In this document: positions 36,926-49,038 of the stretch, in pieces | Layout: each line of letters starts with the position of its first letter | Position numbering within the stretch: position 1 is the stretch's first letter | Assembly (NCBI GenBank): GCA_002369235.1 | Contig: DFFF01000021.1 | Span: forward strand, 6,797-70,796 | Length of the DNA: 64,000 nt | Reading direction: 5' to 3' | From: Verrucomicrobia bacterium UBA3783 | Lineage (GTDB): Bacteria; Verrucomicrobiota; Kiritimatiellia; RFP12; UBA1067 | Program-made: the position numbers and the translations under genes | The notes under the pieces: generated by a model | What the model saw: the letters and a program-made list of their open reading frames with translations, nothing else | What the model was told of the DNA's origin: nothing | Databases searched by the model: none

Positions 36926-37783
36926 CTACCGGATTGCGAGCGTCAGTTCGGCAAGCGAGGTTGAGGTTTTGACGAGCGGCCAACGATTTTTCCAGTACGG
37001 AATGTCTTGCCAGTAGGAAACTAGTTCCTTGATACGCCCCAGCACAGGCCGTTGCCCATGAAGTTCGGCGGCACTTTGGTCTATATAATTCAAAAGCAGT
37101 TCACGGCTGTCGCTTAATTTGCCTAGAGAAACCACAAAAGGCCGCCCGACCATGATGTCCGGGATGTCGGTCTGGGGCGCATCGGCGTTATAGTCGCCAT
37201 TGTAGACTACAGGCATTTTTGCCGCCGCACGTATCTCTTCAAACGTTTGAATGTCCGGTTTCCCTGTATACATTTGCCGTGCGGTTCTGGCGTGGACGGT
37301 AAGAAATCTCAGCGGATAGCGATTCAATATCGGCATAAGCCGGGCAAGTTCGTCCGGGCTGTCCACGCCAAGCCGCGCCTTGACCGAGAAGTTGCCCTCG
37401 CCCATTTCTTCGCATCCAGCCTTGACCATGGCTTCAAGTATGTCCGGCGTGCGCAAAAGTCCGCTGCCGCGACCTTTGTTGCGAACCATGGGGAATGGAC
37501 ACCCGCAATTGAGGTCGGCAGTCTTGTATCCCGCCGATTTGATCCTTTTTAGACAAAAGCGCAGGGCGGCGGGATCTTTGCCGATGAATTGCGGAGTGAC
37601 GGCAAGCGCTTCTTCCGCCGCACCCAATCCCTGCAATTCCCGATCGCGAAGAGGATCCACACCGTTCATCGCGCTTATGAATGGCGTGACGGCCTCTGTA
37701 AACCCGGCATCGGCGATTTGTCTGGAGAATGTCCTGCGGAAACACCGGATTGTAACGCCGCGAAGTGGTGCAAGTATCTTCAT
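36926..37783 (-). CDS. tRNA-dihydrouridine synthase family protein
   Basis: It has APLRGVT..FRR at the N-terminus and the Dus signature DLNCGCP. It is the only convincing minus-strand gene in the window. Confidence 0.8.
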   Translation of the reverse strand: MKILAPLRGVTIRCFRRTFSRQIADAGFTEAVTPFISAMNGVDPLRDRELQGLGAAEEALAVTPQFIGKDPAALRFCLKRIKSAGYKTADLNCGCPFPMVRNKGRGSGLLRTPDILEAMVKAGCEEMGEGNFSVKARLGVDSPDELARLMPILNRYPLRFLTVHARTARQMYTGKPDIQTFEEIRAAAKMPVVYNGDYNADAPQTDIPDIMVGRPFVVSLGKLSDSRELLLNYIDQSAAELHGQRPVLGRIKELVSYWQDIPYWKNRWPLVKTSTSLAELTLAIR

Positions 37784-37806: not shown

Positions 37807-37982
37807 CATCCCTAGTTTAGCATCCTTGACTTCGTAGTCCAGCCCTCTCGACTTCGTAGTCCAGCATTCTCGACTTCGTAGTCCAGCATTCTTTACTTCG
37901 TAGTCCAGCATTCTTTACTTCGTAGTCCAGCCCTCTTTACTTCGTAGTCCAGCAGTCTTTACTTCGTAGTCCGTTTTCTGTC
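37807..37982. repeat. tandem array of a 22-bp repeat, 7 good copies plus 1 degenerate (core ACTTCGTAGTCCAGC)
   Basis: The core starts at 37829, 37851, 37873, 37895, 37917, 37939 and 37961, an exact 22-bp period. A degenerate copy lies at 37807-37828. The array sits in the divergent dus / rpiB-glyA intergenic region. Confidence 0.95.
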
Positions 37983-38032
37983 CTTTTGACCTTTCTGAAT
38001 CTTCAATTCTCAAGAATTATAGCAAAAAACCA

Positions 38033-38062
38033 TTGAAAAAACAAGCAGATTTTTGATATAAT
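38033..38062 (+). promoter_or_regulatory. promoter TTGAAA-N18-TATAAT (GATTTTTGATATAAT)
   Basis: The -10 ends 9 nt before the rpiB-glyA ATG. Confidence 0.6.
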
Positions 38063-38071
38063 ATACAGGGT

Positions 38072-39757
38072 ATGAAAATAACTATTGCAAGCGATCATGG
38101 CGGCGTGGAATTGAAGTCCATGCTCATTGCGACTTTATCGGCTGGATTTGGCCGGACTGTTCTCGATTTTGGCCCAGTCTCAAAAGACAGTTGCGACTAT
38201 CCCGACTACGCCCTCAAGGTAGCCATGTCGATATCGGCGCATGAGGCCGATTTCGGCATTCTGATTTGCCGCAGCGGTATCGGTATGGCAATGGCGGCAA
38301 ACCGCTTTCAGGGCGTGAGGGCGGCAGTTTGCCAGACGGTGGACGCGGCGGTCACTACGCGTCAGCACAATGGCGCGAACGTCCTTTGCCTCGGCGCGGA
38401 TGTCGTCAGCCCCGCCTACGCCGCGGAAATCGTCGAAGCCTTCATTTCCACTCCGGTCGATACGAGCGAGCGCCATGCGCGCCGCCGGGCGAAGCTGGAA
38501 CGCGCCGGGCGTTTGAGCGATGTGAGCGGACTTGCGGCGGAAGACCCGGAAATCTACGCCACGGTTTTGGCGCAGTCCCGTCAGGAGGACACGGAAATCA
38601 ACCTTATCGCGTCGGAGAACTTTACTTCCCGCGCTTGCCGGGAGGCGGCGGGCAGCGTGCTCATGAACAAGTATGCTGAGGGCTATCCGGGCAAACGCTG
38701 GTATTCCGGCTGCATTCCGGTGGACAGTGCCGAGACGCTGGCGATTGAACGCGCCAAGAAGCTTTTCGGCGCCGAGCATGCGAATGTCCAGCCGCACTGC
38801 GGAAGCGCGGCGAATATGGCGGTGTATTTCGCGACGATCAAGCCTGGCGAGACCATCATGTCCATGGCGCTCGATCAAGGCGGACATCTTTCGCATGGTT
38901 CGCCGGTCAATTTCTCCGGCAAAATCTACAATATCGTTCCGTATACCGTGGACAAGGCGACCGAGCGGCTGGACTACGACGCGCTTGAAAAGCAGGCTTT
39001 GGAGGTGAAGCCGAAGATTCTGCTCGCCGGTGCGAGCGCGTATCCGCGCATGATCGACTTCAAGCGCATCCGCGAGATTTGCGACAAGGCCGGATGCATC
39101 ATGATGGTGGATATGGCGCATATTGCCGGACTCGTCGCTGGCGGTGCTCACCCTTCGCCCGTGCCTTATGCCGATTTCGTCACCACGACGACCCACAAGA
39201 CGCTTGGCGGACCGCGCGGCGGCATGGTGCTTTGCAAGGCTAAATACGCCAAGGCGCTGGATTCCGCAGTGTTTCCGGGAATGCAGGGCGGTCCTTTGGA
39301 GAATATAATCGCCGCCAAGGCGGTTTGCTTCAAGGAGTGGCTCGGCGAAGCGAAGCGCGGCTATGCGCAGCAGGTCGTCAAGAATTGCCAGGTCCTTTGC
39401 CGGACGGTTCAGGATCGCGGCTACCGGATTGTTTCCGGGGGGACTGACAACCACCTCTTCCTCGTAGACGTGAAATATACCAAAGGCGTCACCGGCAAGG
39501 ATGCCGCCGCTGCACTCGATGCAGCCGGAATCGTCGTCAACAAGAATACGATTCCCTACGATACCGAGAGTCCGTTCAAGACATCCGGCATCCGCGTGGG
39601 CACGGCCTCGGTCACGACACGCGGCATGCGCGAGGCGGAGATGATCAAGATCGGCACTTGGATCGCCGACGTGCTCGATGATGTTTCCAATCTCAGTGTT
39701 CAGGCGAGGGTGAAGCGCGAGGCTGGCGAACTCGCGCTTGGCTTCCCGGCGCCGTAG
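38072..39757 (+). CDS. rpiB-glyA: ribose-5-phosphate isomerase B fused in frame to serine hydroxymethyltransferase
   Basis: aa 1-~150 form a complete RpiB/LacAB domain ([26 protein letters not shown]). From ~aa 165 there is a full GlyA ([12 protein letters not shown]-Lys motif [13 protein letters not shown]). It is a single 561-aa ORF with no internal stop. Confidence 0.85.
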
Positions 39758-48781: not shown

Positions 48782-48869
48782 ACTGCCAAGTCCAGCCCTC
48801 TCCACTTCGTAGTCCAGCCTCCTCGACTTCGTAGTCCAGCCTCTTTTACTTGGTAGTCCAGCCTTCTGG
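48782..48869. repeat. tandem array of the same 22-bp repeat, 4 copies
   Basis: Units start at 48782, 48804, 48826 and 48848. The array lies between the mnmA stop and the tRNA-Ala promoter. Confidence 0.9.
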
Positions 48870-48896
48870 ACATGGCAGGGTGCGGTGCTTGCCTTT

Positions 48897-48911
48897 ACCC
48901 TAATTTAGGGT
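48897..48911. promoter_or_regulatory. 15-bp perfect palindrome ACCCTAA-T-TTAGGGT abutting the -35 of the tRNA-Ala promoter
   Basis: The inverted repeat is visible in the sequence and ends 1 nt before TTGACT at 48913. It is geometrically operator-like. Confidence 0.5.
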
Positions 48912-48912
48912 A

Positions 48913-48942
48913 TTGACTTTTGGGTGCGGAATATGGTATAAT
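48913..48942 (+). promoter_or_regulatory. promoter TTGACT-N18-TATAAT (TGGTATAATAC)
   Basis: The -10 ends 20 nt upstream of the mature 5' end of tRNA-Ala. Confidence 0.7.
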
Positions 48943-48962: not shown

Positions 48963-49038
48963 GGGGAAGTAGCTCAGTTGGTAGAGCATCACGTTCGCAA
49001 CGTGGGGGTCGTGAGTTCGAATCTCATCTTCTCCACCA
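48963..49038 (+). tRNA. tRNA-Ala (anticodon CGC), CCA encoded
   Basis: Folded by hand into a 76-nt cloverleaf: acceptor GGGGAAG/CTTCTCC with the G3:U70 alanine identity pair, anticodon loop TTCGCAA, T-loop TTCGAAT, discriminator A, and 3' CCA. Confidence 0.9.

Follow-up and report, generated by a model that had tools for sequence, protein, structure and literature searches.

Introduction

The closest described systems to the repeats analysed here are the REPs and BIMEs. REPs are species-specific, may coexist as several families, are located mostly downstream of genes and are known to be reiterated in tandem, head to tail (PMC3733652; PMC6006769). One rule for recognizing them requires the stem to be fully paired and GT[AG]G to lie outside it, at a distance of 0-2 nt (PMC6006769), and compensatory changes have been described in their stems (Nunvar 2010; PMC2817692). 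GTAG-bearing REPs are known in the PVC superphylum, and RAYT genes are often found without flanking REPs (PMC3733652). TnpA-REP acts on single-stranded DNA (ssDNA) only, needs both a 5′ GTAG and a stem mismatch, and cleaves between the C and the T of an indispensable CT dinucleotide; it has been proposed to add units one by one (PMC3333891). With regard to RNA, REP325 of E. coli has been described as a partly Rho-dependent terminator and as an mRNA stabiliser (bioRxiv 10.64898/2026.03.23.713779).

Here, we have analysed a stretch of 64,000 nt (hereafter the window) from the genome of the Kiritimatiellia member Verrucomicrobia bacterium UBA3783, in which an array of 22-bp tandem repeats had been noticed between dus and rpiB-glyA, and have followed its repeat through the whole 1.64-Mb genome and into relatives and other assemblies. 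In the literature, searches revealed nothing specific on arrays of this kind in Kiritimatiellia, nor on dispersed 22-bp arrays.

Structure of the array between dus and rpiB-glyA

The features of the window that are referred to below are as follows (coordinates are those of the window; family A is the repeat family to which the array belongs).

36926-37783, minus strand: dus, a tRNA-dihydrouridine synthase family gene (PF01207), left flank of the array; alternative start at 37669 in another assembly
37807-37828, plus strand: degenerate leading 22 nt, catccctagtttagcatccttg, in register with the array
37829-37982, plus strand: the family-A array under study, six perfect 22-bp units and a truncated seventh; the GTAG-bearing strand is the plus strand
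38005-38018, no strand assigned: inverted repeat that does not belong to the repeat family, AATTCTCAAGAATT, situated between array and promoter-like site
38033-38062, plus strand: sigma-70-type promoter-like site before rpiB-glyA, TTGAAA-18-TATAAT with a TG extension
38072-39757, plus strand: fused rpiB-glyA, RpiB-SHMT (PF02502 + PF00464), right flank of the array and head of a long plus-strand gene string
48782-48869, plus strand: second family-A array, four units (two exact cores, one with one mismatch and one degenerate)
48896-48942, plus strand: terminator-like hairpin TACCCTAATTTAGGGTA, its T-run overlapping the -35 of the tRNA-Ala promoter
48963-49038: tRNA-Ala, with promoter TTGACT-18-TATAAT

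Much of the original prediction about the surroundings was borne out: the flanks are a minus-strand gene of the Dus family and a plus-strand RpiB-SHMT fusion, the array is non-coding, the inverted repeat occupies 38005-38018, and the -35 placed at 38033 belongs to a promoter-like site that scored 11/12. The ATG of rpiB-glyA (38072) lies just 9 nt past the -10 of this site. Tandem Repeats Finder reported the array at 37819-37972 (period 22, 7.0 copies, 90% matches, 0% indels, score 231), starting within the degenerate leading 22 nt. The exact 15-nt core ACTTCGTAGTCCAGC begins at 37829, 37851, 37873, 37895, 37917 and 37939, and the truncated seventh unit (ACTTCGTAGTCCgt...) begins at 37961. The constant 22-bp period had thus been correctly described, whereas the "seven to eight" copies first counted are reduced to six full cores and one partial core.

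It had also been stated that the array is not a CRISPR, with which we agree. CRISPR arrays consist of 24-48 bp repeats with unique spacers of similar length between them, whereas the total unit here is 22 bp and its variable part comprises just 5-6 positions. A minus-strand TGGACT, which had been likened to a -35 hexamer, is indeed present in every unit; however, it is not part of a promoter-like site, since no -10-like hexamer is found at promoter spacing, and the promoter scan detected no minus-strand promoter.

Within the window, 11 matches to the core could be observed at two or fewer mismatches, compared with a mean of 0.07 in window shuffles. Among the six full cores of the array, changes affected 0 of 90 core sites and 9 of 42 linker sites (Fisher p = 1.8e-5). 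The constraint on the core, set against a free linker, and the conserved half-sites every 11 bp keep likely one part of the original prediction, namely that a sequence-specific protein recognizes the array. With regard to the second array, the first unit starts 16 nt past the mnmA stop codon; the array thus has a stop codon ahead of it and, with the hairpin at 48896-48942, a probable terminator behind it.

A genome-wide family of phased and constrained repeats

A genome-wide scan for the core had been set beforehand as the refutation test of the prediction, and the prediction withstood it: the core is abundant, with 177 matches at one or no mismatch. In the whole assembly (91% complete, 43 contigs, with N runs in some arrays), 252 core matches were grouped into 68 clusters, and family A comprises ∼59 arrays with roughly 320-355 units, all of them intergenic. 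Among long tandem periods, 22 is the one found most often in this genome, about 0.5% of which is occupied by this family.

On the basis of 319 units, the logo of the 22-bp unit reads ACTTCGTAGTCCAG c n y y C T n K, that is, an imperfect 18-bp palindrome (CTnKACT - TCGT - AGTCCAG) plus 4 nt. Positions 6-9 form a conserved GTAG (G.92, T.73, A.99 and G.99), which is found at the 5′ foot of an AGTCCAG-loop-CTnKACT hairpin, its AG being inside a stem that is not fully paired. C19 (.75) and T20 (.96) are conserved within an otherwise free linker of 4-8 nt. The conserved positions form a dyad, C19 T20.. A1 C2 T3 against A8 G9 T10.. A13 G14, so that inverted 7-nt half-sites recur every 11 bp and the separators are alternately TCGT, which is conserved, and a tetramer that varies but is rich in pyrimidines. 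These half-sites are unequal: the right arm is AGTCCAG, and the left arm is conserved at just five of its seven positions. Pairing is depleted at stem position 21/12 (48 Watson-Crick pairs compared with 75 expected in the 319 units), about three quarters of the units carry an internal mismatch, and 36% have T22 opposite C11. No covariation could be observed between the stem arms of family A, Watson-Crick pairing being at or below expectation in three of the four tested pairs and marginally above it in the fourth. About 12 arrays have the central tetramer in flipped orientation (ACGA) with respect to the linker.

The layout of the arrays is equally regular. Units occur only head to tail, with zero spacer and in one direction per array, and just the 7-nt half-sites alternate. 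The unit-to-unit interval is exactly 22 bp in 287 of 297 cases, and array size varies from 2 to 8 units with a sharp mode at 5-6. Single units were no more frequent than in a reversed-genome control (39 and 43, respectively), and those singletons lie inside open reading frames. Across the genome, neighbouring units of an array show differences at 17% of their core sites and at 52% of their linker sites; for units of different arrays the values are 20% and 63%, respectively. With the cores held at 17-20% while 52-63% of the linker sites have changed, the arrays must be old, yet their cores have been kept.

Sister families, orientation and spread

At least two further families, unrelated to family A, are present in this genome; B (AAAAGGT-n3-ACCTTTT + 5 nt, 11 loci) and C (CACCCAATGCGTTTCGTTTTC, 5 loci) have the same 22-bp design, without GTAG. 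There is also a single-locus 22-bp array at C6:33698, among whose neighbours only hypothetical proteins and no evident regulator were found.

Gene context was counted with a rough six-frame competitive gene caller and ARAGORN tRNAs. By these counts, family-A arrays are oriented with their flanking genes in a ratio of 36:7 (p = 9e-6) and family-B arrays in a ratio of 7:1. The sense strand of family A is pyrimidine-rich (C 30%, G 22%), whereas that of family B is G-rich, though co-oriented with genes. Because GC skew and gene strand are concordant on 31 of 32 contigs, the GTAG-bearing strand is usually the leading-strand sequence, that is, the lagging-strand template. Replication and transcription are inseparable as sources of the orientation bias in this genome; the arrays that follow a minority-strand gene number only two (C11:10166 and C18:14872), not enough to part replication from transcription.

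Sequence is also shared between loci. Of 58 family-A arrays, 16 have a stretch of 80 nt or more in common with another locus at 88% identity or more, linker order included. The same six variant units are present at three loci with unrelated flanks, the similarity beginning at the first unit, and ten arrays close, in register, with a fixed 3′ module, GGCAGGGCGGCAATC(GAAGAATCGAAAAAT), exact copies of which occur nowhere else. In the congener G016, family-B arrays form near-identical composite elements of ∼190 bp at many loci and contig ends. The shared blocks, their linker order and the terminal module indicate that whole blocks have been copied or converted between spacers.

Among the compared relatives, family A is private to one species: the 177 core matches found here compare with 0-2 in each of 40 relatives, which is the control level. 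The exact double-core pattern had no match in collections of genome contigs and viral contigs. No family-A array was found in the orthologous spacer upstream of rpiB-glyA in 20 congeners, and in G007 this spacer contains a different 22-bp palindromic unit. Family B could be identified in 3 of 24 congeners (G001, G016 and G023), the spacing again being 22/44/66 bp. In a sample of about 380 kb from ten relatives, we observed a 6 x 22-bp array in G008, a 22-bp array in G007 and two 23-bp arrays in G021, and no such arrays in the sampled sequence of four other families of the order. In the relatives, the design recurs and the sequences and sites do not.

Arrays are stable over short times. Four independent assemblies that span the second array of the window are identical there, and in a near strain only a linker is different. 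DNA of this species is also present in the samples SRR873607, SRR5322961 and ERZ1756086. For the array upstream of rpiB-glyA, the one spanning ENA scaffold is base-identical, and Logan contigs break inside the array. Matches from a JGI metagenome (OCTX01...) represent the same strain, their apparent differences being N runs and contig joins.

Proposed explanation

We tentatively explain the array upstream of rpiB-glyA as one copy of a species-private, genome-wide, extragenic REP/BIME-like repeat whose reader is probably a Y1/RAYT-type ssDNA enzyme; as a whole, this explanation is the best available to us, held with somewhat less than even confidence. The core would be kept because a sequence-specific protein reads the family-A unit, and the likeliest such reader would be an enzyme of the Y1/RAYT type that works on the lagging-strand template, where the hairpin is exposed. 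By cutting at the conserved CT, this enzyme would insert, remove and reinsert units of 22 nt, singly or in blocks. Such a reader would account for the private sequence and the copying of blocks as well as for the exact period, the restriction to arrays and the strand bias. The array would then have no dedicated role for dus or rpiB-glyA, and any effect on transcription, whether through weak hairpins in 3′ untranslated regions or as a roadblock, would be a side effect. The reader protein and any function of the arrays are what we infer from these sequence patterns.

A gene resembling that class is present. The single Y1 gene of the genome (C25:29719-30864) has NCBIfam NF047646, the REP-associated tyrosine transposase, as its best family (59.9 bits), ahead of IS200 (31.6 bits), and scored 37.8 with Pfam Y1_Tnp, for which the cut-off is 23. 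However, 59.9 bits is below the NF047646 cut-off of 80 for what is the sole RAYT-like gene. A REPtron arrangement, with the gene between two inverted REP copies, could not be identified either: no A, B or C unit lies within 1 kb of the gene, the nearest family-A array being ∼2 kb away, and RAYT-like orthologues among the congeners do not track the carriers of arrays. The hairpins inside the gene differ in sequence from the units of families A, B and C; an in-gene hairpin was considered as its cognate repeat and rejected, as it occurs in that gene only. It should also be noted that families B and C lack GTAG, so that a GTAG-specific enzyme cannot explain all families, that the units, never single, all head to tail and without covariation, are unlike classical REPs, and that GTAG overlaps the stem by two bases. 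The confounding of replication and transcription polarity likewise weakens the argument from strand bias.

Alternative explanations

A possible alternative, to which we give a smaller but real chance, is that the arrays are docking sites, in which a dimeric host protein that binds double-stranded DNA would occupy each dyad cooperatively and act at the level of the chromosome, not of one promoter. Three to eight dimers would form a nucleoprotein segment of ∼110-130 bp between transcription units, with contacts on roughly one helix face. Such segments could serve as boundaries or insulators, in supercoil management or in nucleoid organisation, each repeat family having its own co-evolving reader. 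This is consistent with the dyad-symmetric conservation without covariation at inner arm positions, the strict phase (287/297 intervals), the constraint on cores in old arrays, and the fact that units are never single and peak at 5-6 per array, which suggests cooperativity or a preferred footprint. The same 22-bp geometry is found in unrelated sequences, both in this genome (families B and C and the array at C6:33698) and in congeners (22 bp in G007, G008, G016 and G023; 23 bp in G021). Arrays persist when the central tetramer is flipped, as expected of an orientation-blind symmetric dimer. Array frequency is also equal in all spacer types: about 20% of all spacers bear an array, including 54 of 314 co-directional, 8 of 32 divergent and 3 of 17 convergent spacers.

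On the other hand, no candidate protein was found for docking, and at least three different readers would be required in a 1.6-Mb genome. A symmetric dimer explains neither the 36:7 orientation bias nor the unequal half-sites, a sequence confined to one species would demand very fast co-evolution, and the fixed terminal module, together with the copying of entire blocks, is reminiscent of an element. In addition, half-sites spaced by 11 bp drift from the 10.5-bp helix by ∼0.5 bp each, which amounts to about two-thirds of a turn over seven units. Docking explains the shared geometry, the size optimum and the flippable centre better than the proposed REP/BIME-like repeat, and the polarity and element-like spread worse. 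It seems unlikely, though of interest, that the arrays are a boundary system in which each Kiritimatiellia species would have private pairs of a fast-evolving DNA-binding protein and its phased 22-bp dyad array; their nucleoprotein segments of ∼120 bp would insulate neighbouring transcription units as barriers to supercoils or to read-through, and the spread of blocks would be secondary.

It is improbable that the arrays work mainly as RNA, namely as transcribed 3′ untranslated elements that would serve as partial (Rho-assisted) terminators or as stabilisers of 3′ ends. In co-directional spacers, arrays usually start 2-50 nt past the upstream stop codon and, judged by this position, would have to be transcribed; the second array of the window has such a position, between the mnmA stop codon and the terminator-like hairpin. 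The excess of C over G on the sense strand of family A, the presence of rho in the genome and the 36:7 orientation with transcription also fit this possibility. However, eight arrays, including that upstream of rpiB-glyA, are located in divergent spacers without a gene end, and a purely 3′ untranslated element is therefore rejected. Nor are the stems maintained, considering the internal mismatches in about three quarters of the units, the T22 opposite C11 in 36% and the lack of covariation, and a structured-RNA hairpin array found no covariation support in the 319 units of family A. Folding of the array upstream of rpiB-glyA gave just the fold-back of any run of dyad units, and folding is stronger for the antisense than for the sense strand (z = -5.0 and -3.5, respectively). 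Rho loading (rut) was rejected as a general explanation: family A has more C than G on the sense strand, but the co-oriented family B is G-rich there, which is the opposite of a Rho-loading signal. A terminator scan for hairpins with a T-run did not separate array-bearing spacers from others, partly because the units themselves score as weak terminators. An RNA-level role may add local effects, as in the case of REP325.

A locus-specific activating array, bound cooperatively by a regulator of the rpiB-glyA promoter or of dus, was the regulatory role advanced in the original prediction and is essentially excluded. In its favour, a strong promoter-like site follows the array at ∼60 nt and in the same orientation, and a TGnTATAAT-like -10 is present within 200 nt downstream of 39 of 59 arrays, compared with 12 of 59 in the opposite direction. 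However, similar arrays are found at about 59 loci beside unrelated genes and in all spacer orientations, convergent spacers included. The distance from array to next -10 varies from 36 to 174 nt, and no helical phasing between arrays and promoters was observed at periods of 10, 10.5 and 11 bp (Rayleigh p about 0.5). Upstream activating sites and UP-like elements, by comparison, are expected at a constant or phased distance and within one regulon. Arrays precede tRNA units at the background rate only, and an association with tRNA genes or strong promoters was rejected on this ground. Furthermore, the array is missing in the congeners, and a TGGTATAAT-type -10 is still seen upstream of rpiB-glyA in at least three (L026, L028 and L031). 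To annotate the array as an operator or an enhancer of rpiB-glyA would be misleading.

The least probable alternative, a neutral minisatellite grown by replication slippage with neither reader nor selection, would fit the tandem head-to-tail layout and the slightly greater likeness of adjacent units than of units from different arrays (linker differences 0.52 and 0.63), but it is effectively refuted by the dispersal to ∼59 loci, by the strict phase with almost no indels at ∼14% core substitution, by cores that are conserved while linkers are nearly saturated (which together exclude a young neutral minisatellite as well), by the narrow size range and by the identity of the second window array in four assemblies.

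Comparison with known repeat systems

The REP/BIME-like repeat proposed above is best judged against the described systems. Like REPs and BIMEs, family A consists of high-copy (>100 units), extragenic, imperfect palindromes that are species-specific, with several families per genome. Its 22-nt unit is within the 20-40 nt of REPs, and its 7-nt arms CTnKACT / AGTCCAG, comparable to the 6-9 bp of REP stems, enclose a 4-nt loop whichever way the hairpin is drawn. A stem mismatch is kept (21/12), and the CT conserved within the variable linker is the dinucleotide that TnpA-REP must have to cut. Family-A arrays are mostly located downstream of genes, show tandem reiteration and carry mosaic flanking modules, all as in REPs and BIMEs, and the genome contains a RAYT-like gene, a counterpart of the RAYT / TnpA-REP Y1 enzymes that go with the Y, Z1 and Z2 palindromic units and BIME-2 of E. 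coli and with the GTAG-tagged REPs of Pseudomonas, Stenotrophomonas and Opitutus terrae.

There are also clear differences. GTAG is conserved in family A too, but it overlaps the stem by two bases, unlike that of REPs, and the stems show none of the compensatory changes of REPs. BIMEs consist of regularly spaced REPs that alternate in orientation, whereas family-A units are all head to tail and never form inverted pairs; classical REPs occur singly or as inverted pairs, whereas family-A units are never single. The sister families B and C, unlike GTAG-tagged REPs, have no GTAG. On these sequence features, we class family A as REP/BIME-like in behaviour rather than as an established member.

Other known repeats resemble family A in part. 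Plasmid iterons and ParR repeats are likewise head-to-tail repeats of ∼20-22 bp in arrays of 4-10; the R6K gamma origin has seven 22-bp iterons, and both iterons and ParR-binding repeats are bound cooperatively on one face of the DNA. However, iterons and partition repeats occupy one or two loci beside a rep or par gene, whereas family A occupies ∼59 chromosomal loci with no associated gene. The cyanobacterial STRR and LTRR repeats share with family A the nature of lineage-specific, dispersed, intergenic short tandem repeats, but STRR units are 7 nt long, non-palindromic and without a 22-bp phase.

If a Y1-type enzyme builds the arrays, they would provide a natural case of tandem amplification unit by unit, a process hitherto described for BIMEs in models only; should a host protein be the reader instead, they would represent a new form of chromosomal punctuation in the PVC superphylum. 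In either case, the 22-nt unit, whose tolerant and intolerant positions are known, makes family A a clean substrate for testing, and the family is also a useful strain marker for this rumen species. Compared with the described systems, it joins features that are usually seen apart: GTAG, a stem mismatch and a conserved CT on the one hand, and an array-only, head-to-tail and exactly phased layout with a narrow optimum of 5-6 units on the other.

Gene boundaries flanking the family A arrays

The flagged array of family A, the dispersed 22-bp repeat of this genome, lies at 37829-37982 of the window between dus and rpiB-glyA. The start of dus (36926-37783, minus strand) is ambiguous owing to two competing calls, which give a protein of 285 aa from 37783 (Logan gene calls) versus 247 aa from 37669 (ENA call), and no consensus promoter for this gene was found on the minus strand in the promoter scan. 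On the other side (38057-38074), the -10 hexamer of the promoter-like site of rpiB-glyA ends at 38062 and the ATG is at 38072, so that a transcript from this site, if it is used, would have little or no leader. A start codon approximately 10-20 nt from the promoter was also seen at several other promoters that follow arrays. The gene itself (38072-39757) encodes a single 561-aa protein, a fusion of RpiB and serine hydroxymethyltransferase that is kept in 27 of 30 congeners (77-84% identity). In congener G007, the orthologous spacer upstream of rpiB-glyA (locus L020, G007:C19) carries 2.8 copies of a 22-bp palindromic unit, GATTCTCTATATATGGAGAAGC, which differs from that of the flagged array.

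The second family A array of the window (48782-48869) is followed at 48896-48942 by a terminator-like hairpin, TACCCTAATTTAGGGTA, and then directly by TTGACTTTT, which doubles as the -35 of the tRNA-Ala promoter. Thus, terminator and promoter form one fused module, and similar modules were found 3' of at least six other arrays.

Other tandem arrays in the genome

N runs occur within family A arrays at C24:~37400-37473 and C18:~14990 (C numbers denote contigs of this genome). A metagenome contig (L061) revealed that the C24 array continues unbroken across its N run, and therefore the counts and sizes of family A arrays are slightly too low. Arrays of two further families are as follows, those of family B, which has additional members, lying outside the window.

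C6:10497-10643, family B
C14:12586-12740, family B
C24:5724-5874, family B
C29:64413-64561, family B
C36:45712-45860, family B
C38:22681-22873, family B
C1:5322-5484, family C, 1.3 kb beyond the left end of the window
C18:6884, family C
C32:17673, family C
C33:51555, family C

The family B unit, AAAAGGT-n3-ACCTTTT, forms 22-bp arrays that are co-oriented with genes at 7:1. Congeners G001, G016 and G023 share this family. In G016 its arrays take the form of ~190-bp composite elements that lie at contig ends and are nearly identical to one another. The family C unit, CACCCAATGCGTTTCGTTTTC, is non-palindromic and forms arrays of 21-22-bp period, one of them upstream of a tRNA-Val gene. A 700-bp array at a contig end (C20:45890-46589; 10.6 copies of a 66-bp unit) bears no relation to the 22-bp families.

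RAYT-like gene

Two hairpin copies with a perfect 12-bp stem, GGGGTGCGAGGG / CCCTCGCACCCC, are located at C25:30330-30450 (1910-1939 of locus L045), inside the reading frame of the RAYT-like gene. Alignments to its congener homologues are split into two or three pieces, which suggests in-frame inserts.
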